DNA of 53,137 nt from a virus (lineage: Duplodnaviria; Heunggongvirae; Uroviricota; Caudoviricetes), in IMG/VR virus record IMGVR_UViG_2645727867_000003; one strand, 5' to 3'. Position numbers and translations under genes: made by a program. This document shows, in pieces, positions 1 to 42,436 of this stretch (within the stretch, counting starts at the first letter, position 1; each line of letters opens with the position of its first letter). The notes under the pieces are model-generated. The model did no database searches. It was not told the DNA's origin and was given only the letters and a program-made list of their open reading frames with translations.

Positions 1-524
1 ATGACAACTCAAATCTCTGTTGAAACCATCTCCCCGTTCACCCATAACCAGATTCCTGTTATTACCACCGAACTTTTGGCGCAGCTTTATGGCACCGAAA
101 TTCTGAATATCCAGGTTAACTTCACCAGAAACAAAGAGCGTTTTGTCGAAGGAAAGCACTTTTTTAAAGCATCGGGTGAAGAATTAAAAAATTTGCGACT
201 TACTTTAAGTAAGTCACAAAACCCCATATCTCCCAAAGCCCGCCCCTCACCCTATGGACAGAACGCGGAGCAGCACGCCACGCAAAAATGCTGGAAACCG
301 TTCAGGCGTGGGAAGTGTTCGAAAAACTCGAAGACTGTTATTTCAGCCAAAAACAGCCACCAGCAGCACAAAACCCCCCAACCCAAAATGATGGATACGC
401 ATTACTGATCCACCTCGATAAACACGGGCAGGTCGAATTCACGGAAAAAATCCCCGCCGATGCGATGGTATGCACTCTGGAACGGTTTTTATCTGGAGCA
501 ACACGACTGGATCGTTGCCCGTAA
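1..524 (+). pseudogene. ORF6N-domain antirepressor-like gene, disrupted by a frameshift near 230-245
   Basis: Frame 1 (1..408) matches the N-terminus of the intact paralog at 42437..42988 (ITTELLAxLYGTE...RFxEGKHFFKA). Homology then continues in frame 2 (288..524, ...AARHAKMLETVQAWEVFEKLED...). Confidence 0.5.
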
Positions 525-930
525 AGAACAACTGGTAGAACGGTTGATGCGGTTTTAATGATTGCAAAACCCCGGATGATCACTGGGGTTAATTTTATCA
601 AGCGTGATTGCCGCTAATCGCCCTCTCTCTGATTGAGCGTAAATCATCCAGGTTATGCAGTTCTTCCTGGACGTAATTGTCACAGGCTCCAGCAATGATA
701 GACTCTCAATTTTAAGAGCCGTAGATAAAGAGCCTGCACATACGTTCATTAAGCAAACGCTTCAAAATGTCTGGAAAAAAATACGGACTTCCGAAAATCT
801 GAAAAATCATCCATATCAACAGGATGCACGAAAAATGAGAGTTCCGTCACTTCCGGAATTAACTTTTCCGTGGCACTATTTACCCGGCATAGTGTATATC
901 TTCACAATAATGACATAATCAACGCAGTTC

Positions 931-962
931 ATGGGGGAGGTGATGGTCCCCCATCTTTTTGT
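931..962 (+). terminator. intrinsic terminator (8-bp stem ATGGGGGA/TCCCCCAT followed by T-run)
   Basis: Perfect inverted repeat with 8-nt loop followed by CTTTTTGT on the plus strand. Confidence 0.5.
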
Positions 963-965
963 CTG

Positions 966-1637
966 TTATTCCTGTGCCCAGCCAACCCTGTATACCAGGA
1001 TCTCATCCGCACTGCTCAGCGATTCCAGGTCCTTCTTCATGGTGCGCTGGCGAATGTGGATTTCCATCCCTTTGCTGAACATCGCCTGCTCTGCCGCTTC
1101 ACTCAGCGCAATAAGCTCTTCTGCTGTCACCTGTACATCATTGTTTTCCGCATCCGTCCAGAAAAACGCCTCCGGCAGTTTCCCCGCTTTCGCTGCCGCC
1201 ACCGATGGCTCAAGGCGCGTCTGCGTTGACTTTCCGTAGTCCCATTTCCGGCCATTGTGCTCAAACGTGTAGTTCGCCGCCTCCATCGCATTACGCCACG
1301 CGTTTATTTCATCGCCCTTCATCCCGCGCGCTTTCTCCGCGGTCAGAGTATCAACGACGTTTTCCCCGTCAAACTTCCACCGCCCGGAGATATCAGCTTT
1401 GCGGTTTTCTGCTGTATCCTCAACCTCCACCACACTCTGCCCCACTGGCCACAGCATCGACACATCCTTACTGATACTCGTGATTATGCCTTCGCTGTCA
1501 TAAACCAGCTTCAGCGTATCCGCCTTAAATGACGACTGGCTTTCATACCAGTCACGGCCATCCTCTGCCTTCAGGTACATTGACCCCGGAACATCCGACT
1601 TCTCAGGAGTATAACGTTGCAGATTTTTAAGATTCAT
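966..1637 (-). CDS. putative tail fiber assembly/chaperone protein (called mainly from position downstream of stf)
   Basis: 223-aa ORF immediately downstream of the side tail fiber gene. No clear match to the lambda Tfa C-terminal motif. Confidence 0.45.
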   Translation of the reverse strand: MNLKNLQRYTPEKSDVPGSMYLKAEDGRDWYESQSSFKADTLKLVYDSEGIITSISKDVSMLWPVGQSVVEVEDTAENRKADISGRWKFDGENVVDTLTAEKARGMKGDEINAWRNAMEAANYTFEHNGRKWDYGKSTQTRLEPSVAAAKAGKLPEAFFWTDAENNDVQVTAEELIALSEAAEQAMFSKGMEIHIRQRTMKKDLESLSSADEILVYRVGWAQE

Positions 1638-1705
1638 TTCTTCTCCTCATACGAATATTCAGGACAGGGTACCCGTTTAAGCTTTCCGCGCCCGGAAAAA
1701 TCATG

Positions 1706-2974
1706 TTATTCATGTTCCACCGTAACCCACTGGCTGCCATCATGAACCTGAAGGAAGCCGTAAGTGACAGCGGTGACACAGGCTGCCCCTAAATTGCCGT
1801 TCGTCAGTGATACCGGAGCCGTCCTGATATTCAGAATCACAGCGCCATCAGGGGCTGCATTTTCCCCCTGCGCACCGCCATAAAAAGAGGGGAAAACGAC
1901 TGTGCTGGAGGTGACTTCTGTTTTCTCGCTGATACGCACTCTGTTCGCCTGTGAATCTGCGCCATCCTTCCCTGCGGGGCCCGTCGGCCCGGTATCACCT
2001 TTCGGCCCCCGCTCACCGGCAGGGCCTGCCGGGCCGGGGTCACCTTTATCCCCTTTTTCCCCTTGTGGTCCTCTGGGGCCGGTAGCACCCTGTGGACCTC
2101 GATCACCAGGCTCGCCTTTTTCCCCCTTAGGACCGACGCTACCTGTTGGCCCCGGAGGTCCAGGTATACCCTGTGGACCAGCCGGACCTGTATCGCCTCT
2201 CTCCCCTGCCACACCCTGCAATCCTTGCGGCCCTCTCTCTCCGGCGGGTCCCCTCGGACCTGCCGGGCCCTGAGGCCCCGGCTCCCCTCTGGGGCCAGTG
2301 TCACCTTTTGGTCCCGGAGGTCCTCCGGGATCTCCCGGCTCTCCTTTTTCGCCTCTGGCTCCGGTTTCACCTCGCGGGCCCGCAGGACCAGCAGGCCCCT
2401 GAATACCCGCCTCTCCTTGCGGTCCCACGGGTCCGGTTTCACCCCGTGGCCCCTGTACCCCCTGTGGGCCTGCCTCACCACGCTCACCCTTTGGCCCACG
2501 CTCGCCGGTATCGCCTTTTGGCCCGGGAATACCCTGTGGCCCGGTGTCTCCCTTATCCCCCTTCGGTCCCCGCGCATTCTCTGCCCGTTTCTTCGCTTCC
2601 TCTGCACTCGCCGCTGACGCTTCCGCACGTTTCAGGATTTCCGCGGCCACCGCTTCCAGCTCTGCAAGGGCTTTCGGGTAATACTGTGCGTCCTCCAGGT
2701 CCATCAGAAATTTATTCAGCGTTCCCGGTGCAGAGTCCGCCTTCACCAGAATGTCACCCACATATGACGGCGCGTACCCTTCCGTGTTCAGCGTCACCCG
2801 GTACAACCCCGGCTCAACATCCATACTGTAACTGCCGGTTTCCCCCGGCTGACCATACGCCACCGTGGTGACAATCACCGTCTCCGTTGTGCGTCGCGCT
2901 TTCAGCTCTATCGTGCATCCCGGTACCGGCTTACCGGCCCCGTCCTTCAGCACACCAGAAATTTTAACCGTCAT
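1706..2974 (-). CDS. stf: side tail fiber protein with long collagen-like Gly-X-Y repeat region
   Basis: N-terminus [17 protein letters not shown]...CTIELKARR resembles lambda Stf. The central ~270 aa are Gly-X-Y triplets ([20 protein letters not shown]...). SD GGAAAGG precedes the ATG at 2974. Confidence 0.85.
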
Positions 2975-2986
2975 ACCTTTCCACCA

Positions 2987-3018
2987 ATAAAAAAGCCCGC
3001 AGCAGTAATGCCACGGGC
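2987..3018 (-). terminator. intrinsic terminator between lom and stf
   Basis: Minus-strand hairpin GCCCG...CGGGC followed by T6, about 14 nt upstream of the stf RBS. Confidence 0.5.
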
Positions 3019-3123
3019 TTCAGGACAGTGTAACTTTACGTTTCCTCAGACGCAGCTCACCCATAAGGTGGATGAACATGCTCATTATACCAATATTTAC
3101 AGAAGATAAAGCTGTATCTGCCG

Positions 3124-31627: not shown

Positions 31628-31739
31628 GAATCCTCCCGGCCGGGATAATGTTCTGAGTCAGAGAAGGCACGGGCTGACCTCCGGAAACACAAAAGTCACA
31701 CAGAAAAACAGCCCGCAAAAAAGAAATACGCCCTTACAG

Positions 31740-31769
31740 TTGCGCAAGGTGATTACTCTAAGGTATTAT
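31740..31769 (+). promoter_or_regulatory. sigma70-like promoter (TTGCGC-18 nt-TATTAT)
   Basis: Both hexamers and the spacing are conserved in the paralogous copy at 34487-34516. Confidence 0.45.
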
Positions 31770-31776
31770 TAGGGTG

Positions 31777-31853
31777 CTGAATAAATTACTTCACGTTTTG
31801 TTATTTATTCCTTGCTTCCTTGCCAACCGCTCTTCCCAGGAGCGGTTTTTTTT
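31777..31853 (+). ncRNA. candidate ~77-nt sRNA (promoter to intrinsic terminator), paralog A
   Basis: No ORF. Conserved core ATTACTTCACGTTTTGTTATTTATTCCTTGC, then hairpin CCGCT-N9-AGCGG and T8. Confidence 0.4.
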
Positions 31854-31859
31854 ACATGT

Positions 31860-31885
31860 AAAAAGGCTCCTGCGATGAGGAGCCT
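31860..31885 (-). terminator. minus-strand intrinsic terminator convergent with the sRNA-A terminator
   Basis: Hairpin GGCTCCT-N6-AGGAGCC followed by T5 on the minus strand. Confidence 0.5.
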
Positions 31886-31899
31886 GGATGTATGCCTAA

Positions 31900-32900
31900 T
31901 CTCTGTATACTGCATGGTGCCGGGTGCCTCCCGGTGAACAAATGTCCGTGATATCAGTCGGCCACACAGGAAATGATACGATATCACCCCTCCGCACAGG
32001 GGGATTCACCATGCCCGTTTTTTTTAACAAACTCCTCATCAATCAGACAATCATCAACCTCATGAATTGTGAGGAATTTAACATTTCACAACACAGCCTT
32101 TTCCCTGCATAAAAAAGCCCCTCCGGAGAGGGGCTTCGCTACGTGTCTGTTAACCATATGCATGATGCCGGGTGCCTCCCGGTGAGTTCAGTATCAGCAC
32201 CTGAACCCGCACAGAAAGGATAGAGTAGAAACACCTGCGCTGATATGCCCCTCCGCTCAGGGGGATTCACCATGCAGAACTTTTTTAACAACTCCCCGTA
32301 AGACAGGCAAGCATCAACCATCTGAACTGTGAGGAATTTAACATTTCACAACACAGCGTTTTTCCTGCATAAAAAAGCCCCTCAGGAGAGGGGCTGACAC
32401 TGCGTATCTGTATCATCATGAACATGGTGCCGGGTGCCTCCCGGTGAGTCCAGTCTGGTGTCCCTGAACCCGCGTTTGCATTGCCTACAACAGAAAAGAT
32501 GCAAATCACACCAGTCGCCCCTCCGCACAGGGGGATTCACCATGCAGAACTTTTTTAACAACTCCCCCTCAGACAGGCAAGCATCAACCACCTGAACTGT
32601 GAGGAATTTAACACTTAACAACACAGCCTTTTCCCGCACAAAAAAAGCCCCTCCGGAGAGGGGCCGATCGCTATGTATACACCATAAGCAGCATAGTGCC
32701 GGGTGCCTCCCGGTAGATTCAGCCTGACTACTGAATCTGCGTATTGTGACCATCGCTATGGAGACCATGTCAGACGCCCCTCCGCACAGGGGGATTCACT
32801 ATGCTGGCTCGTTTTTACAAGACTTCCATCGATCAGACAATAGCCCATCAACCGAATTGTGAGTCATTTAACATTTCCATGAGGTAACTGATATCCAGCT
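31900..32900 (-). repeat. tandem array of four ~260-bp structured repeat units (candidate minus-strand sRNA genes), each with a hypervariable internal hairpin
   Basis: Each unit has conserved blocks GTGCCGGGTGCCTCCCGGTGA, CCCCTCCGCACAGGGGGATTCACCATGC, GAATTGTGAGGAATTTAACATTTCACAACACAG and a minus-strand terminator GCCCCTC-CGGA-GAGGGGC plus T6 (32111-32134, 32371-32394, 32641-32664). A 50-70-nt unit-specific segment lies between the first two blocks. Confidence 0.6.
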
Positions 32901-33122
32901 AACAATCATCTACAATGGACGAAGCCAGTTCCAGAACTTGCCCACGGTACAGCAACAACCACTGCATACACATAATTACCACCGGACTCTCTGAACCTGC
33001 CTCCTGGCTAACCCCAGATACAACACCACCAGTCACAAAAGCATCTTATTCTGAAGTACAACTGCCGTGCGGCAGATACTAAAAGCGCCTGTATGTAACA
33101 ACATAAATATACAGGATATGTT

Positions 33123-33401
33123 TTATCCACGGGATATAATTTTGATTTCATCAAAACCGTTACTACCTGCAATTCTGTTGTACTCCTGAACAAGACTCAG
33201 TAACTCCGAATTAGCCGCGGTGAACTCCTCACAGACGTTCCGAAGTGCATCTACATCCAGAAGAACCATCTCCTGACCTGAACGTCGATCAGGGGTACAA
33301 AATAAAACTGTCAGACGACTGAAGACCTTTGTTCGTTCCACATTGACGGCTTCAATACGCTGTAACAGTTGGCTACATCTGATTTTCTCATCAATATTCA
33401 C
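33123..33401 (-). CDS. hypothetical protein (92 aa) downstream of the AraC-family regulator
   Basis: GTG-start ORF in an AT-rich segment. Weak SD. Confidence 0.3.
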   Translation of the reverse strand: MNIDEKIRCSQLLQRIEAVNVERTKVFSRLTVLFCTPDRRSGQEMVLLDVDALRNVCEEFTAANSELLSLVQEYNRIAGSNGFDEIKIISRG

Positions 33402-33489
33402 GCAAACACCAAATGATTATAACTTTTTATGCTGAACACATTCAGACTATATCTAATACAGTCAATCAATATATGCCTGATGAAAAACA

Positions 33490-34215
33490 TCAGATAACGT
33501 CTGCTTTCTGCAAATATGCATAGCTCTCAGGTGGTGCACCATAATACTGGTGAAATACAGAAATGAAGTAGGACTTACTTGAGTAACCACATTTTTCCGC
33601 TATCGCTTGTCCACACTCTCGCTGGAAACATACAAGATTAACAGCAACACGCATTCGCTCCTCCAGCAACAACCGACTAAAGCTATAACCTTCATCCTTA
33701 AGTTTTCGCTTCAACAAGCTTTCGCTCATATGCAATTGTAATGCAATCACACCAAGCATCCAGCCTGCCGATATGTCGGTCTGAATTATAGCCCTTACTT
33801 TACAGCTGATATTATTTACAGCACCGGACAAAAATAATGGCAGACGTCTGTCTGTTGCAAATAAGGAGATACATGAAAATGCGGTTATAACAGAGAAATC
33901 CTTCAAAGTATCACTGGATTCACTATGCTGGGTTATTAAAGCCTCCGCCAGTTCCGTATTGTAAATATCAGACATCAAATAAAGAGGAATTTTTGTCGGT
34001 GTATACTCCGTCAGTTCACACTCCCTTTCCAGATACTGATTGACGACGCTGTTACTTATATCTGCCATTTTCACTCTGTCGGCATAAGCACAGAAAAGCC
34101 CTCTTATATTTCTGGCAACAAGCATAACACTTCCGGCATCGAGTGAAACTTTTTCTTTTTCAAGAAAAATATCTATCGGATAGCGAATCAGGACCACAGA
34201 GCAGGCAACATCCAT
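33490..34215 (-). CDS. AraC/XylS-family transcriptional regulator (GadX-like C-terminal HTH)
   Basis: C-terminal …LLKRKLKDEGYSFSRLLLEERMRVAVNL…CGYSSKSYFISVFHQYYGAPP… is an AraC-type double HTH. AT-rich codon usage. Confidence 0.8.
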   Translation of the reverse strand: MDVACSVVLIRYPIDIFLEKEKVSLDAGSVMLVARNIRGLFCAYADRVKMADISNSVVNQYLERECELTEYTPTKIPLYLMSDIYNTELAEALITQHSESSDTLKDFSVITAFSCISLFATDRRLPLFLSGAVNNISCKVRAIIQTDISAGWMLGVIALQLHMSESLLKRKLKDEGYSFSRLLLEERMRVAVNLVCFQRECGQAIAEKCGYSSKSYFISVFHQYYGAPPESYAYLQKADVI

Positions 34216-34282
34216 TTTGAATTAACCTTAGCAAAAAGACTTAATACCAGTATATTCCAAAAATGGCATTTTGGGAGATTAC

Positions 34283-34455
34283 TTCTGCAAACCGCTCCCG
34301 CTAAATACATCCCTGATTTCCTGCGCAGTCTGTTCAAAACGCCCGGTATCCAGCTCAACGCCAGTTGCACGACGCCCCAGCGCCATCGCTGCTTTAACTG
34401 CCGAACCCTACCCCATGAAGAAATCTGCAACCAGGACACCCAGCAGAAGGGAGAC
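34283..34455 (-). pseudogene. remnant 3' fragment of a DNA methyltransferase gene (paralogous to 35819-35990)
   Basis: Nucleotide alignment to the 3' end of the intact methylase gene. Translation …ADFFMG*GSAVKAAMALGRRATGVELDTGRFEQ… carries an in-frame TAG. Confidence 0.55.
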
Positions 34456-34486
34456 TACAGCCCGCAATTCGAAAAAGGCCACGCTA

Positions 34487-34516
34487 TTGCGCAGAGTGAT
34501 TACTGTCGGGTATTAT
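34487..34516 (+). promoter_or_regulatory. sigma70-like promoter (TTGCGC-18 nt-TATTAT), paralog of 31740-31769
   Basis: Identical hexamers and spacing. Confidence 0.45.
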
Positions 34517-34523
34517 TCGCCAG

Positions 34524-34591
34524 TTGAAGTATTACTTCACGTTTTATTGTTTATTCCTTGCCGCCCGCGTCTCCCAGCGCGGGCTTTTTTT
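34524..34591 (+). ncRNA. candidate ~70-nt sRNA, paralog B
   Basis: Same conserved core as paralog A. The terminator stem is changed in a compensatory way (GCCCGCG-N8-CGCGGGC plus T7). Confidence 0.4.
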
Positions 34592-34599
34592 GTCCATAA

Positions 34600-34860
34600 G
34601 AAAGCCCCTCCGGAGAGGGGCTGAAGCCGCATTTCTGTATCACCATGAGCATGGTGCCGGGTGCCTCCCGGTGAGTTCAGCCCGGTGACACCAAACCCGC
34701 GTATTCTCGCTTACGATCATCAAAGAGATCATACCGTTCACCAGTCGCCCCTCCGCACAGGGGGATTCACCATGCGAAATTTTTTTAACAAATGCTCAGT
34801 CTGACAGGCAACTGTCAACTTACTGAATTGTGAGGGATTTAACACTTCACAGCACAATAT
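34600..34860 (-). repeat. solitary fifth copy of the ~260-bp structured repeat unit
   Basis: Contains all four conserved blocks plus its own variable segment. Minus-strand terminator at 34605-34628. Confidence 0.55.
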
Positions 34861-34910
34861 CTTTCCAGCGCCCCAAAATCATCAGGACAGGAGAAAATCT
34901 TCTCCCCCTG

Positions 34911-35339
34911 TCAGAGTTTAAAATCCAGCACGCCATTTCTAAATGCTTTATATACTCCTGAAGACGGTGGTGATGGTATATCAGCATTCTTTACTGCATT
35001 CATCGCTTCACGACATAAATCGGGATCACCGCTTTCTCTTTTAACCTGTAGCAGAAGACCATTCGGGGCCATATACATTCTCAGTGAACACTCTTTTCCT
35101 GAATACTTACTCGCATCCTTTAACTGTTCTTCTATGGCTTTCCTGACCTGAATGGCATACTGCCGGATTTCTTCACTGGCATCAGGGGTACGTTCCGATG
35201 AGCTCAAATTTTGTGACTTTATTAATTTATCTGAGTGATACAGAGAAGCATCATAATTATTTGTCGATACATCTTTTGTGCAGCCAGTTGTCAGACTGGC
35301 TAATATCAAAACAAGAACCGGTACAGCACGGCAATACAT
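34911..35339 (-). CDS. lipoprotein with TolA C-terminal (domain III)-like region
   Basis: Signal peptide/lipobox-like LTTGC. C-terminal …YSGKECSLRMYMAPNGLLLQVKRESGDPDLCREAMNAVKNADIPSPPSSGVYKAFRNGVLDFKL is collinear with TolA domain III as recalled from memory (…YAGKTCTLRIKLAPDGMLLDIKPEGGDPALCQAAL…FKNAPLDFKP). SD GGAG. Confidence 0.7.
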   Translation of the reverse strand: MYCRAVPVLVLILASLTTGCTKDVSTNNYDASLYHSDKLIKSQNLSSSERTPDASEEIRQYAIQVRKAIEEQLKDASKYSGKECSLRMYMAPNGLLLQVKRESGDPDLCREAMNAVKNADIPSPPSSGVYKAFRNGVLDFKL

Positions 35340-35617
35340 TTATCCATCTCCATATTAACAAGAACAATTATCTATAAAATATAGTAAATATGCGGGATCC
35401 GGGAGGACTTGTAACTATCATCTCCGGATCAGCATGTAGTTTTTATTTTTCCGGATGATATATGCCGCAATAATACCCCTGCATACAGATGCCTGCAAAT
35501 ATCTACGAAGCATCCGGCGAGAATAAACAAGGAAGTCTGAGGCTATCTTATATGATAGCCTGTTGCTCAAAAGACAATGATTCACTCATCAGAACCAACA
35601 ACGCATAATGCTGATAA

Positions 35618-35694
35618 TGGACCGCCATCGAGGACTCGAACCCCGCGCAGCCAGCTTCGAAGGCTGGCGCTCTATCCCGATGAGCTAATGGCGG
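35618..35694 (-). tRNA. tRNA-Arg (anticodon UCG)
   Basis: Hand-folded cloverleaf: acceptor CCGCCAT/ATGGCGG, D-stem GCTC/GAGC, anticodon loop CUUCGAA, T-loop TTCGAGT, 3' CCA encoded. Confidence 0.7.
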
Positions 35695-35702
35695 TATGGA
35701 TA

Positions 35703-35778
35703 TGGTGGCCCTTGCTGGATTTGAACCAGCGACCTGGCGATTATGAGTCGCTCGCTCTCACCACTGAGCTAAAGGGCC
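35703..35778 (-). tRNA. tRNA with CAU anticodon, ileX-like (tRNA-Ile2 read via lysidine, or Met)
   Basis: GGCCCTTTAGCTCAGTGGTGAGAGCGAGCGACTCATAATCGCCAGGTCGCTGGTTCAAATCCAGCAAGGGCCACCA closely resembles E. coli ileX as recalled from memory. Confidence 0.8.
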
Positions 35779-35818
35779 GGGCGCATGATAATAACGGTAC
35801 GTAACTAATCCTGCAATA

Positions 35819-36880
35819 TCATCCATTCTGACTGACTAAATCCTGTACTTCCCTGACCGTCTGCTCAAAACGTTCAGTCTCCAGCTCAACGCCAGTTGCA
35901 CGACGCCCCAGCGCCATCGCGGCTTTGACTGTCGAACCCGACCCCATGAAGAAATCTGCAACCAGGTCACCCGGACGACTGCTCGCACTGATTATCTGCT
36001 GCAGCATTTCTGCCGGTTTTTCGCACGGATGTTTCCCGGGATAGTACTGCACCGGTTTATGCGTCCACACATCCGTGTACGGCACCTGCGCCGTCACGCC
36101 AAAATACCGCCGCAGATGCTTATATTCACTCTGCAGTTCCGCATACTGCCGGTTCAGTGAAGTATACGTCTCCAGCAGCTGGTGGTGGGGCTTTTCCAGT
36201 TCACCCCGCTGATGCTTCTCTTCTGCCACCCGGGCAAACAGCGCCTGTAATTTCAGATAATCGCTTTCGTTCGGTAGCTGCCACTGACTGGCACTGAACC
36301 AGTGCGACACCATGTTTTTCTTTCCTGTGGCATCCACTATCTGTTTTGCCGTTATCCCCAGGGCAGCACGCGCATCACGAAAGTAAGCAATCAGCGGAGC
36401 CATCACATGCTGTTTCAGTGCCCTGCCCTTCGCCTCATAGCCATCATCTTTCGAGCGATACGGCCCCTGATAGTGTTCCGCGAACAGAATGCGCTCTGTG
36501 GCGGGGAAATACGCCCTCAGGCTTTCCTTGTTGCACCCGTTCCAGCGTCCGGACGGCTTCGCCCAGATAATATGGTTCAGCACACTGAAGCGTTCACGCA
36601 TCATGATTTCAATGTCAGACGCCAGGCGATGGCCACAGAACAGGTAAAGACTTCCGGCAGGTTTCAGCACCCGCCAGAACTGCGCCAGACACTGGTCCAG
36701 CCACTTCAGGTAATCATCGTCGCCCTTCCACTGGTTATCCCAGCCCTCAGGCTTCACTTTAAAGTACGGCGGGTCCGTGACTATCAGGTCAACAGAATTT
36801 TCGGGTAACGACCGGATAAATTCCAGGCAGTCGGCGTTGATTAACTCACAACTGGATATTTTTACAGTATTAAACTTGGA
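35819..36880 (-). CDS. DNA N6-adenine/N4-cytosine methyltransferase; the conserved N-terminus lies upstream of the first canonical start codon
   Basis: In-frame translation upstream of the called GTG start reads …ELINADCLEFIRSLPENSVDLIVTDPPYFKVKPEGW…, including the DPPY motif. No ATG/GTG/TTG between the upstream stop (36881-36883) and 36757. Confidence 0.7.
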   Translation of the reverse strand, partial: SKFNTVKISSCELINADCLEFIRSLPENSVDLIVTDPPYFKVKPEGWDNQWKGDDDYLKWLDQCLAQFWRVLKPAGSLYLFCGHRLASDIEIMMRERFSVLNHIIWAKPSGRWNGCNKESLRAYFPATERILFAEHYQGPYRSKDDGYEAKGRALKQHVMAPLIAYFRDARAALGITAKQIVDATGKKNMVSHWFSASQWQLPNESDYLKLQALFARVAEEKHQRGELEKPHHQLLETYTSLNRQYAELQSEYKHLRRYFGVTAQVPYTDVWTHKPVQYYPGKHPCEKPAEMLQQIISASSRPGDLVADFFMGSGSTVKAAMALGRRATGVELETERFEQTVREVQDLVSQNG

Positions 36881-37028
36881 TCATTAAGCCTGTCTCTGAT
36901 AGGCTCATACCGCTTTTGCGCAAAGCAGATGGGCCTGAGGTTTGCTTGTGACCCCAACGCATGAGCAGATGGCTGGTGAGTGCCCCTAACACCCACCAGC
37001 CGCCCATTTACCACAAATAAAAAAGCCT

Positions 37029-37226
37029 TCAGGACTGAAGGCGTCTGTAACAACCAAACTGATAGTCTGCCAGACCCGCCATAACAAGCTGGGTCAGTAT
37101 TAGCTGGCAGCGTTCGCGTGAAAGGTACGTATTCTGTGCAATCTCCCCGACTGTCGCCGGTTCGGTGGCACTTAATTCATTAAAAACTGCTCTGGCGGTT
37201 TCTGTCATATCCTGCTGTTTCAGCAT
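37029..37226 (-). CDS. small putative winged-helix protein
   Basis: MLKQQDMTETARAVFNELSATEPATVGEIAQNTYLSRERCQLIL… with SD AAGGGA. Confidence 0.45.
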   Translation of the reverse strand: MLKQQDMTETARAVFNELSATEPATVGEIAQNTYLSRERCQLILTQLVMAGLADYQFGCYRRLQS

Positions 37227-37399
37227 GTCTTTTTCCCTTTTCCGGTTAACGTGACACACCAATAACTCTTGTCAAAAAAGCCAGCAAGCTGAAAGACCGG
37301 TATTAATAACCACCTGCACATTTTATGTACTGCACCATTTTTCTGGCATAAAAAAGCCGCTCAATGCCGGGCAGTAAAATCTTTATTACTCAGGAAATT

Positions 37400-38113
37400 T
37401 TAACGTACTCTGACAGTATTAATTTCAAAATCATTAATATTTCCGCTATTAAATATAACGAATTTCTTACCCCCACTCCTGTATGATTTCGATAACACCA
37501 GACGATCATCATAGCGCGCAATAATGTAATACCATACATTCTCATAGTGGACCGCCTGATATTCCCTCTTAAACTGTGGTTTGTACCAACCGGCAATAAG
37601 AGAGAATGCCCAGAAATAAATCATAAACCCAGCCATCATGAACTCAATTCGGTGATGGCGAATAACAGACATTTCCGAAAAACATTTGACTGAAACAAGT
37701 CTTCTTCCAGACCTGACAAAAAGCGTGATTGCAAAGGCAGCAAGAACGCAGAAAATCAGTACATCTGGCTCAACATGCTGATGAATTACAGAAAACTCCA
37801 GAACAGGTGGAATAAAAAGCAGCAATATCGCGAGAAAAAGCCGGATAAAACTCAAATTTTGTATATTGCGCTTTTGTTTTATGCCCAAAAAGAAAACAAT
37901 ACCAACTCCCCATCCAATAAGGAATATAACAATAACTGTCACAGCATAAAACAAACTTCGTGCTACATCATCGACACCAGCCCCGACAACCCACCATGGA
38001 AAGCCATAGTAAAATGAAGTACCCCATCCATAGAAATAAGCGCTCCCCCATCCGAGACAGCCCATATAAGCAACAAAAAGTGAAGAGTTTCTGAGCAGAG
38101 CACTGTCATCCAT
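37400..38113 (-). CDS. polytopic inner-membrane protein of unknown function (AT-rich accessory gene)
   Basis: 237 aa with several Trp/Gly/Phe-rich hydrophobic segments. First gene downstream of the late promoter. Confidence 0.55.
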   Translation of the reverse strand: MDDSALLRNSSLFVAYMGCLGWGSAYFYGWGTSFYYGFPWWVVGAGVDDVARSLFYAVTVIVIFLIGWGVGIVFFLGIKQKRNIQNLSFIRLFLAILLLFIPPVLEFSVIHQHVEPDVLIFCVLAAFAITLFVRSGRRLVSVKCFSEMSVIRHHRIEFMMAGFMIYFWAFSLIAGWYKPQFKREYQAVHYENVWYYIIARYDDRLVLSKSYRSGGKKFVIFNSGNINDFEINTVRVR

Positions 38114-38244
38114 AGTAACACCATTAACAACTCAAAAATATCAACACACATTACATAACAAATTGGATTCCATGCAGTCAAGGGGCGTCATTGATGGAGA
38201 AAGTATTGGCACAATCGTCATCACGTTTAATGTCTATGCCATTT

Positions 38245-38266
38245 TTTGGGGGGTAAAAAACCCGCT
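38245..38266 (-). terminator. tR'-like terminator about 60-80 nt downstream of the late promoter
   Basis: Hairpin CCCG-N8-CGGG followed by T6 on the minus strand. Confidence 0.4.
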
Positions 38267-38330
38267 CGGTCACGGGTTTTAGTGGCTTTGCCATCACGTA
38301 TAATAACGGCAAAATATCAGATTTACACGA

Positions 38331-38359
38331 AATATATGCCTTTTTATCTACTTTTGCAA
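38331..38359 (-). promoter_or_regulatory. candidate late promoter pR' (TTGCAA-17 nt-TATATT) immediately downstream of Q
   Basis: Near-consensus hexamers with 17-nt spacer, 8 nt after the Q-like stop codon. Confidence 0.5.
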
Positions 38360-38366
38360 TACTTTG

Positions 38367-41181: not shown

Positions 41182-41209
41182 ACATAGTGTAACACTATGT
41201 GTTATATAA
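41182..41209 (+). promoter_or_regulatory. operator palindrome overlapping a -10 element upstream of the higB-like gene
   Basis: ACATAGTG-TAA-CACTATGT perfect inverted repeat followed by TATATAAA. SD GAGG before the ATG at 41225. Confidence 0.45.
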
Positions 41210-41224
41210 AATGCAGAGGCAGGT

Positions 41225-41597
41225 ATGCGAATTTTCAAAAACGCCTGGTTTGAACGTTTCGCCCGAAAACATCGGATTTCCGATAAATCGCTGCGCAAAA
41301 TCGTGGAGCAGGCCGATAAGGGGGATCATATCCGCAAATTTGGGTAGTGGTGTCATTAAACAAAGATTAGCCCGAAGTGGTGGCGGAAAATCAGGCGGTT
41401 ACCGGACAATAATTTTTTACCGCGTTGCAGAAAAAGCCTTTTTCATCTACGCATACGCAAAGAATGAACGAGAGAATATCACTGCTATAGAGGAAAATGC
41501 TTTTCGAAAAGCCGCTCCCCATGTCCTCAATCTTACTGATGAACAGCTGGCACAATTGATTCAACAAGGCCAGTTCACGGAGGTACCCAATGAGTAA
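41225..41597 (+). pseudogene. HigB/RelE-like toxin gene interrupted by a +1 frameshift in a G5 tract
   Basis: Frame A from ATG 41225 reads MRIFKNAWFERFARKHRISDKSLRKIVEQADKGDHIRKFG* (stop at 41345). The rest of the family sequence (…GVIKQRLARSGGGKSGGYRTIIFYRV…) continues in frame B. The shift maps to GGGGG at 41310-41314. Confidence 0.6.
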
Positions 41598-41907
41598 AAA
41601 TTACCGCAGTGATGCACTTGCATCTGTACATGAAATGATGGAGTCACTCCATGATATCGGTGCAATCACAAAACAAACTATGCGCGAATTCGATGAAACT
41701 TGTCTTCAGCCTGCGCCGGTAATGTCTCCAGAAAGGATCCGTGCACTGCGAGAACGAGAGCATCTGTCTCAACCTGTTTTTGCCAGATACCTCAACGTCA
41801 GTAAAAACCTGATATCAGACTGGGAACGAGGAGTGAAACGCCCGGGAGGTGCAGCTCTTCGGCTTCTTTCAGTTGTCGAGAAAAACGGGATCCAGGTAAT
41901 ATCCTGA
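41590..41907 (+). CDS. HigA-like antitoxin (XRE-family HTH)
   Basis: …LSQPVFARYLNVSKNLISDWERGVKRPGGAALRLL… HTH. Start overlaps the toxin stop. Confidence 0.7.
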   Translation: MSKNYRSDALASVHEMMESLHDIGAITKQTMREFDETCLQPAPVMSPERIRALREREHLSQPVFARYLNVSKNLISDWERGVKRPGGAALRLLSVVEKNGIQVIS

Positions 41908-42009
41908 TATTCTAATACAACAAAACCCGCCGAAGCAGGTTAAGTGCGGGTGCGTTGAGGATGCCTGACACATCAGAGGTGGCGAGGGATTTCTCCCTCG
42001 CCAGGTCTC

Positions 42010-42165
42010 TTACTCCTCAGGTTCGTAAGCTGTGAAGACAGCGACCTCCGTCTGGCCGGTTCGGATTCGTACCTCGCAGAGGTCTTTCCTCGTTACCAGT
42101 GCCGTCATTATGACGGTTAAACAGATGACAATCAGGGCGATTAACATCGCCTTTTGCTGCTTCAT
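42010..42165 (-). CDS. hokD: Hok/Gef-family type I toxin (HokD/RelF-like)
   Basis: MKQQKAMLIALIVICLTVIMTALVTRKDLCEVRIRTGQTEVAVFTAYEPEE. SD AGGAG upstream. Confidence 0.8.
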   Translation of the reverse strand: MKQQKAMLIALIVICLTVIMTALVTRKDLCEVRIRTGQTEVAVFTAYEPEE

Positions 42166-42436
42166 AGCCTGCTTCTCCTTGCCTTTCGGCACGTAAGAGG
42201 CTAACCTACATGTGCAAAGCATGAAATTGGCCTCAGATTAATGTTAAGCGTCCTGCAAGACGCGTAATGTTAACTGGGGCTTTTCTCTGTCTGCCTTACG
42301 GCGGCATGCCCGAGGCAGACAGCCTCAAGCACCCGCAGCAATTCTACTTAACTCTTCTTTCCCCGCAAATCATTTTATCCCCGATGGTAATGTTCTCCCG
42401 ATATGGGAATTCCCATATCAAGGTTAACTCAATCGG

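Follow-up and report, generated by a model that had tools for sequence, protein, structure and literature searches.

Modular cargo between Q and nanS-p of a Q82-type lambdoid prophage in Escherichia coli O104:H21, with a TolA-domain lipoprotein gene at the position of stx

In Shiga toxin (Stx) 2a phages of the 933W/Sp5 type, such as Stx2_12E129_yecE (LC567842), the stx2 locus follows the late antiterminator gene Q in the order Q, a small winged helix-turn-helix (wHTH) open reading frame (ORF), a DNA methyltransferase gene, tRNA-Ile2, tRNA-Arg(UCG), a cargo slot with argO and stx2AB, an STnc100 RNA, the esterase gene nanS-p, and the holin gene. Prophage Sp4 of E. coli O157:H7 strain Sakai carries the regulator gene psrA (ECs1087) between Q and a nanS-p-type esterase gene, and phage 434 (OL657226) has a gene of the STM1630 family directly behind Q and the late promoter region. 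Here, we compare these systems with positions 31628 to 38366 of a viral DNA stretch of 53,137 nucleotides (IMG/VR record IMGVR_UViG_2645727867_000003), referred to as the window. This interval is the exact gap from the Q stop to the nanS-p start. An earlier note, made from the sequence alone, had described it as a single 6.7-kb accessory island at the stx position. Its limits were exact, but the content resolves into three modules, i.e., module 1 (the pR′/tR′ elements and an STM1630-family gene), cassette 1 (from the wHTH ORF to the first STnc100 copy), and cassette 2 (from a methylase stub to an array of four STnc100 copies). Very probably, a lambdoid prophage of the Q82 type, integrated at ompW, has its late-operon leader here, a hot spot for morons between Q and the lysis genes that was built by recombination from these three exchangeable modules.

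The interval has a 100% identical counterpart in the chromosome of strain 94-3024 (E. coli O104:H21; NZ_CP009106.2), an eae-negative Shiga toxin-producing E. coli (STEC) whose stx2d sits on another prophage (PMC4393859). The window as a whole corresponds to a lambdoid prophage that has integrated into ompW, with ompW on one side and an ompW fragment on the other. It carries integrase, a DicA/DicC-type immunity region, replication, Q, lysis, head, and tail genes in lambdoid order. Phage genes read on the minus strand of the window, as do all features described below unless indicated otherwise, and every gene of the interval is co-oriented with the late operon. Just outside the interval lie its left boundary, a Q82-type Q gene (39038-38367; PF06323, E = 6e-90; 77% identity to the Q82-like Q of phage 434), and its right boundary, a nanS-p-type esterase gene (31627-29663) with SASA, DUF1737, and DUF6645 domains. 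The membrane protein, wHTH protein, methyltransferase, tRNAs, TolA-III-like lipoprotein, RNA repeats, AraC-family regulator, and small ORF listed in the earlier note are all present on this strand at the places it had assigned to them.

Two blocks of the interval align with the Stx2a phage in the same order and on the same strand. Positions 37360-35597, which span the wHTH ORF, the methylase gene, and the two tRNAs, are 97% identical, and positions 34833-34443, which cover an STnc100 copy and the leader to ∼72 bp before nanS-p, are 92% identical. Between these blocks, the Stx2a phage harbors argO and stx2AB (1446 bp), whereas the window has 763 bp with a gene for a lipoprotein ending in TolA domain III. 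The breaks in homology delimit this TolA-like moron (35596-34834), which is the only part of the interval in the exact stx slot. The window further departs from these phages in its Q82-type Q, the extra membrane gene, and the added second cassette. Searches of the whole window for Stx2A and Stx2B (tblastn) and for the argO-stx2AB DNA of the Stx2a phage (blastn) recovered none of them (best E values, 0.06 to 2). The locus therefore keeps the conserved flanks of Stx-converting phages on both sides while lacking stxA, stxB, and argO. The note's claim of a toxin-free stx position is borne out by the comparison with Stx phage genomes, which it had proposed as a check.

Such a locus might be the debris of a decayed Stx prophage that lost its ancestral stx operon by deletion. 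The near-identical slot flanks, a host that is an STEC with several lambdoid prophages (PMC4393859), the missing argO, which accompanies stx, and a methylase pseudogene fragment farther downstream would all suit that history. Nonetheless, we regard it as very unlikely. No remnant of stx is left at either the protein or the DNA level, and the gene in the slot is intact and under purifying selection, has a ribosome-binding site of its own and a hairpin behind it, and encodes a lipobox. In strain G8, a fecal isolate from a healthy person, cassette 1 stands alone, with an identical TolA-like protein and nanS-p directly after it. A related gene occurs between Q and the holin gene of the non-Stx phage mEp460_ev081 (LR597641), and no Stx phage record of the phage collection searched carries the TolA-like gene. 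An intact, selected gene with these carriers fits alternative cargo in one slot better than decay.

Downstream of cassette 1, a 114-bp segment (34441-34328) missed by the earlier note is 89 to 90% identical to the 3′ end of the methylase gene and is annotated as a pseudogene by the Prokaryotic Genome Annotation Pipeline (PGAP). The presence of this 3′ fragment of a second methylase gene is what identifies the region as two fused cassettes. The junction, at 34442, shows GTCCTG/CCTG microhomology. Positions 34441-32515 are 98% identical to strain SMBL, in which a full-length methylase gene directly precedes the AraC-type gene. Each cassette is thus found alone elsewhere, cassette 1 in G8 and cassette 2 in SMBL. 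As judged from these alignments, recombination has stacked two cargo cassettes, both known from natural strains, onto a Q82-type module. Cassette 2 would have joined cassette 1 through a microhomology-mediated crossover ∼72 bp upstream of the would-be nanS-p start. The repeats of ∼260 nt, the duplicated methylase end, and five places in the strain that match parts of the region could also raise the suspicion of an assembly artifact, with two prophage loci collapsed or misjoined. This explanation is vanishingly improbable, given that dozens of genomes, finished independently by different laboratories on different platforms, share the arrangement with 99.4 to 100% identity and 100% coverage, and that variants with internal insertion sequences exist. 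The fused island of E. coli RM10410 (NZ_CP042350.1, 1392285-1405095) has IS421 in the methylase gene and ISVsa5 at the end of the AraC-type gene, and that of strain ECA64 has IS2. The fused island has thus existed long enough for variants of it to arise.

The distribution of the modules was assessed in complete E. coli genomes (n = 5426), to which all genome counts refer. Some part of the interval is matched in 3650 genomes, and the whole fused arrangement is matched in 72 at ≥80% coverage. The present allele of the TolA-like moron reaches ≥80% coverage in 123 genomes, with diverged partial matches (80 to 90% identity) in 772 more. The segment with the AraC-type gene and a small downstream ORF, orf92, occurs in 79 to 89 genomes, nearly always at ≥99% identity. 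Other phages carry stx, PsrA, a CAAX protease, or reverse-oriented ORFs at the same positions. The only record of the phage collection with both the TolA-like gene and orf92 is mEp460_ev081, which encodes homologues of the two products (67 and 58% identity, respectively) between Q and holin, in reversed order and without methylase, tRNAs, AraC-type gene, or nanS-p. The membrane, TolA-like, and AraC-type genes have G+C contents of 39.8 to 41.2%, and orf92 has 43.0%, compared with 54 to 56% for the methylase gene and nanS-p.

These figures also bear on whether the interval is merely core lambdoid late leader, whose ORFs would serve phage development only (methylation against restriction, tRNAs for late genes, and RNA elements) and have no host-directed function. 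Several observations accord with this proposal, i.e., the wide conservation of the wHTH ORF, methylase gene, tRNAs, and STnc100-nanS segment, both in the 3650 matching genomes and in Stx phages (92 to 97%), the co-orientation of all genes with the late operon, and the STM1630-family gene that follows tR′ in the classical phage 434 too. It is nevertheless unlikely, since the TolA-like gene, the AraC-type gene, and orf92 are restricted to 1.5 to 2.3% of complete genomes and are swapped for other cargo elsewhere, the G+C content of the cargo (∼41%) differs from that of the methylase gene and nanS-p, and host targets of the PsrA family have been demonstrated (PMC10877973). The note had taken the island for variable cargo, a view that would fail if the sequence proved to be core lambdoid. 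This holds for the rare TolA-like gene, AraC-type gene, and orf92, and for the fused form as a whole, but not for ∼2.2 kb (wHTH ORF, methylase gene, two tRNAs, and the STnc100-to-nanS leader), which make up a conserved late-leader backbone.

Module 1 follows Q immediately. A consensus scan located a pR′-like late promoter (TTGCAA-17-TATATT; 38331-38359) that aligns with sequence just 3′ of Q in phage 434 and is the putative start of late transcription. Next to it, a tR′-like terminator hairpin, AAAACCCG...CGGGTTTTTT, with a T-run (38255-38280) was read from the sequence and aligns with the annotated post-Q terminator of phage 434. The succession of a PF06323-type Q, pR′, and tR′ is that of a Q82-type antitermination module. 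Homology to phage 434 confirms the pR′/tR′ module that the note had recognized beside Q, the antitermination activity itself being putative. The first gene behind it (38113-37400) encodes a polytopic membrane protein of 237 amino acids with ∼5 hydrophobic helices (PF27470, phrog_1521), which takes its STM1630-family name from the PGAP annotation of strain UC4224. Homologues of this family are spread across Enterobacteriaceae, and the papers found on STM1630 give no function for it. The AlphaFold2 (AF2) model (mean predicted local distance difference test [pLDDT], 64; predicted template modeling score, 0.46) has ∼5 helices and a C-terminal beta domain and was judged too poor for a fold search. 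Because the next gene in phage 434 is also of the STM1630 family (56% identity, same place), the comparison shows, at the level of gene order and similarity, that the membrane gene belongs with the Q82-type Q. A SASA esterase gene and a class II holin gene then follow in phage 434 as in the window. Where the window has the methylase, tRNA, TolA, and AraC cassettes, phage 434 carries TciB and a further small membrane gene. Upstream of Q, the window contains hokD and a RelE/ParE-type toxin gene (two separate coding sequences according to PGAP) beside a helix-turn-helix antitoxin gene (window positions ∼41199-41907 and 42000-42400; record positions 2103974-2104914), as well as an immunity and division-inhibition region of the DicA/DicC/DicB type.

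Cassette 1 starts with the wHTH ORF (37226-37029; 65 amino acids from the PGAP start; phrog_331, E = 1e-37), whose Pfam matches (TrmB, HTH_24, and MarR) are all under their cut-offs. The N6/N4 DNA methyltransferase gene behind it (36859-35819; PF01555, E = 5e-44; PADLOC MTase_II, 2.8e-160) is conserved in Stx2a phages. It is an orphan, as PADLOC found no restriction partner for it, and the only PADLOC matches to defense systems were MTase_II itself and a weak hit of the wHTH ORF to SWIM_XIII (E = 4e-4). In Stx phages, G8, and SMBL, the wHTH ORF always lies 5′ of the orphan methylase gene, and in Sp4 and phiSTEC1575-Stx2k it precedes a Psr-type regulator gene instead. It may be a controller of whatever gene comes next. 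The two tRNA genes encode tRNA-Ile2 with anticodon CAU, homologous to ileZ (35778-35703; ARAGORN and Rfam; tRNA-Ile in PGAP), and tRNA-Arg(UCG), homologous to argN (35694-35618; ARAGORN). The argO gene that comes next in Stx phages is absent here. The tRNA region is 91% identical to the ileZ1-argN1 region of Sp4. AUA codons amount to 21 to 33 per 1000 in the cargo genes. The E. coli genome average is ∼4 to 5 per 1000, and tRNA-Ile2 may serve these AUA-rich genes.

The TolA-like gene in the slot (35339-34911) encodes a 142-amino acid lipoprotein with TolA domain III (PF06519, E = 6e-23; 81 bits versus a gathering threshold of 25). This domain is 51% identical (E = 1e-25) to residues 333-420 of host TolA and matches solved structures of E. 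coli TolAIII, and both disulfide cysteines are conserved in the TolA-like family. The protein starts with MYCRAVPVLVLILASLTTG-C, featuring a lipobox (LTTGC) with a G-C pair that is near-invariant across the family, and lipidation is predicted accordingly. A linker of ∼35 amino acids connects the lipoprotein signal to domain III. Unlike TolA, the protein lacks domains I and II, and the profile PRK09510 scored 103 bits (cut-off, 213) and was covered at positions 297-386 only. Judged by this layout, the PGAP name TolA is wrong as a statement of orthology and misleading. The ratio of nonsynonymous to synonymous substitution rates (dN/dS) is 0.35 relative to the mEp460 allele. A promoter (35499-35470) and the downstream hairpin were recognized at the consensus level only; the moron traits seen are presence or absence between colinear phages and the low G+C content of ∼41%. 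Short proteins that combine a lipoprotein signal with TolAIII form a broad family, of which this protein is a member. In E. coli Combat13F7, a diverged TolA-domain allele (∼82% nucleotide identity, ∼770 genomes) is found in a Rac-like prophage by trkG, flanked by a Q-region gene and the essD holin gene. This strain carries it twice side by side, as a partial copy and as a copy of 124 amino acids.

TolB, Ff g3p, and colicin A all dock on TolAIII (PMC7391070). Targeted alone to the periplasm, this domain has been used to release periplasmic proteins into the medium, according to a passage of PMC6195910 that cites Levengood-Freyermuth 1993 and Wan & Baneyx 1998. By analogy, a TolA domain III tethered to the outer membrane could plausibly work as a decoy for TolA ligands, i.e., the TolB N terminus, the translocation domains of group A colicins, and Ff g3p. 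The outcome would be tolerance to colicins or filamentous phages or, at late stages of infection, an outer membrane that leaks more. Downstream of the lysis cassette, the prophage encodes a second lipoprotein (25356-25030, minus strand; 108 amino acids) with the signal …LVMG-C and a TonB domain (PF03544, E = 5e-15). Its homologues are found in phage 21 (71% identity) and in Stx1a phages and phage JLK-2012 (97 to 98%). The prophage carries, therefore, tethered C-terminal domains of both periplasmic energy transducers. Tentatively, and with considerable doubt, we suggest that the two proteins represent an undescribed class of phage cargo, outer membrane-tethered energy-transducer decoys. Their targets would be TolB, TonB boxes, the translocation domains of colicins, and the proteins that phages use for entry. 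A lysogen would thereby be shielded against colicins of groups A and B and against phages that depend on Tol or TonB, and overexpression from the Q-dependent late transcript would loosen the outer membrane. The TolA-like protein resembles the phage outer membrane exclusion lipoproteins Llp of T5 and Cor of phi80/N15 in being small, phage encoded, and predicted to reside in the envelope. Their sequences are unrelated to it, and an exclusion role of its own is putative.

Five STnc100 copies punctuate the interval. Copy 1 (34804-34592; RF02076, 172 bits) ends cassette 1 and is 92% identical to the region right after stx2B in the Stx2a phage. The other four form a tandem array with a period of ∼260 to 270 nt (32833-32638, 32574-32365, 32303-32105, and 32043-31854; 119 to 142 bits each in Rfam). 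The array repeats were also detected as repeat families D1 to D3. All five copies span the full model, with scores of 119 to 172 bits (gathering threshold, 47), and their alignment (A1) shows two near-invariant core stem regions and a strongly differing central part. Copy number varies from four plus one in the window to two in SMBL and one in both G8 and Stx2a phages. STnc100 is a described family of prophage small RNAs related to PasD, and it overlaps the Hfq-bound EcOnc27/sRNA103 downstream of stx2B (bioRxiv 10.64898/2026.05.13.724894; PMC12711010; PMC12370729). Copy 1 is the orthologue of this RNA, and the window differs from the EcOnc27/sRNA103 locus in having five copies, with a tandem arrangement of four. 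Behind each STnc100 block lies a terminator hairpin on the plus strand (34563-34584 and 31825-31847), preceded by 31-nt repeats that are 94% identical (34531-34561 and 31785-31815). These hairpins could terminate transcription in both directions or mark where short antisense transcripts end. Two further candidate elements were rejected. AsxR gave a threshold-level match antisense to the STnc100 terminator in G8, none in the window at E values up to 10, and the sequences align poorly. A sigma-54 promoter upstream of the STnc100 copies did not hold by eye in alignment A1, as the spacing misfits and copy 1 lacks the GG.

Cassette 2 encodes, behind the methylase stub, an AraC-family regulator of 241 amino acids (34215-33490; HTH_18 PF12833, E = 3e-12; HTH_AraC PF00165, E = 1e-10). 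It is 61% identical to PsrA over 193 amino acids (E = 6e-80), 60% identical to a homologue encoded upstream of stx2k in phiSTEC1575-Stx2k, and 37% identical over 233 amino acids to ECs_0287 of prophage Sp1, which is probably PatE. The C-terminal double helix-turn-helix, the full-length similarity (compared with PsrA and ECs_0287), and the location in the late region of a lambdoid prophage are those of the Psr/PatE regulators. The earlier note had called the protein AraC/GadX-like. Its assignment to the AraC family stands, and the relationship is with PsrA, for which targets in the host GAD regulon have been demonstrated (PMC10877973). Identity with chromosomal GadX or YdeO was rejected on scores well under the NCBIfam equivalog cut-offs (93 versus 500 bits and 120 versus 348 bits, respectively). 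This allele was found in no record of the phage collection, where the best match reached 59%. The gene evolves under purifying selection (dN/dS of 0.2 overall and 0.07 to 0.13 in the C-terminal DNA-binding half). PsrA, PsrB, and PatE are experimentally linked to activation of gadE/hdeA and acid resistance, with repression of LEE (the locus of enterocyte effacement) via GadE; PsrB is 90% identical to PsrA, according to the same review (PMC10877973). The window protein would act similarly, activating gadE/hdeA (GAD regulon) and thereby acid resistance. Control of LEE secretion cannot be its role here because the host lacks eae, and the repression of type III secretion known for PsrA of Sp4 is likewise inapplicable (PMC4393859). 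Acid resistance control is, on sequence grounds, the likeliest role. Sp4 further resembles the window in its ileZ/argN tRNAs, a membrane protein gene just after Q, and an STnc100 copy. There, the regulator gene replaces the methylase gene and precedes the tRNAs, whereas in the window it follows the methylase stub and is itself followed by orf92 (33401-33123; 92 amino acids, GTG start; phrog_2873, E = 1e-46), which is not annotated by PGAP. The orf92 gene has a dN/dS of 0.27 relative to the mEp460_ev081 homologue and an AF2 model (pLDDT, 82) of a two-helix hairpin. Foldseek searches of the Protein Data Bank returned generic coiled-coil or designed-protein matches, none with E < 0.4, and no function was assigned.

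Our analysis establishes the anatomy and homologies of the interval, how it is distributed, the junction between the cassettes and the two single-cassette parental forms, and that three cargo ORFs are under purifying selection (dN/dS of 0.2 to 0.35 across the AraC-type gene, the TolA-like gene, and orf92). We infer from the arrangement that the cargo is probably expressed late under Q and could rewire host regulation. Intrinsic terminators are enriched in the interval, with 17 found and 7.3 expected. Because of this enrichment and the common orientation of the genes, expression of nanS-p and the lysis genes would have to depend on Q-modified read-through of tR′, of the wHTH-ORF terminator, and of each STnc100 terminator. 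Upon induction, RNA polymerase modified by Q would start at pR′ and pass tR′ as well as eight or more other intrinsic terminators, coexpressing the cargo with nanS-p and the lysis genes. In the lysogen, the AT-rich morons may also use promoters of their own.

Several points weigh against this picture. Promoter-like sites are no more frequent in the interval than in shuffled sequence (11 found, 11.9 expected). The portal gene is frameshifted and a DUF1327 ORF of the lysis region is truncated, so that the prophage may be defective, though late transcription itself requires only Q and pR′. The broad family of lipoprotein-TolAIII proteins could serve a housekeeping role in the envelope rather than exclusion. 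The literature searched yielded no experimental work on phage TolA-domain lipoproteins, nor any paper on phage TolA-like or TonB-like lipoproteins, the decoy role being an analogy. Finally, the N-terminal half of the AraC-type regulator is far more diverged (dN, 0.52), and 61% identity to PsrA is no guarantee of the same targets.

All components come from known families, and, as far as homology tells, they are arranged as in Stx and Sp4-type prophages, which is ordinary for such phages. The combination is new: a TolA-domain lipoprotein that takes the place of the toxin in the exact stx socket, a rare and distinct Psr paralogue in an eae-negative STEC, and the stacking of cassettes. Among the matches listed, many genomes with the AraC-type gene are by label STEC isolates from cattle, beef, or humans; the documented carriers are 94-3024 (eae negative, stx2d) and UC4224 (PMC4393859, PMC10326431). 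Present in ∼1.5% of complete genomes, this distinct Psr-type regulator could tune acid resistance in O104:H21 94-3024 independently of LEE. TolA- and TonB-domain lipoproteins are widespread and misannotated as TolA. If they do act as decoys, a loosened outer membrane would aid virion release and possibly the release of Stx2d from the coresident Stx prophage. Collectively, these findings indicate that lambdoid phages have in their stx slot a general socket for cargo, in which the same flanks, 92 to 97% identical, carry either Shiga toxin or a TolA-domain lipoprotein, and that whole cargo cassettes can be stacked by recombination.

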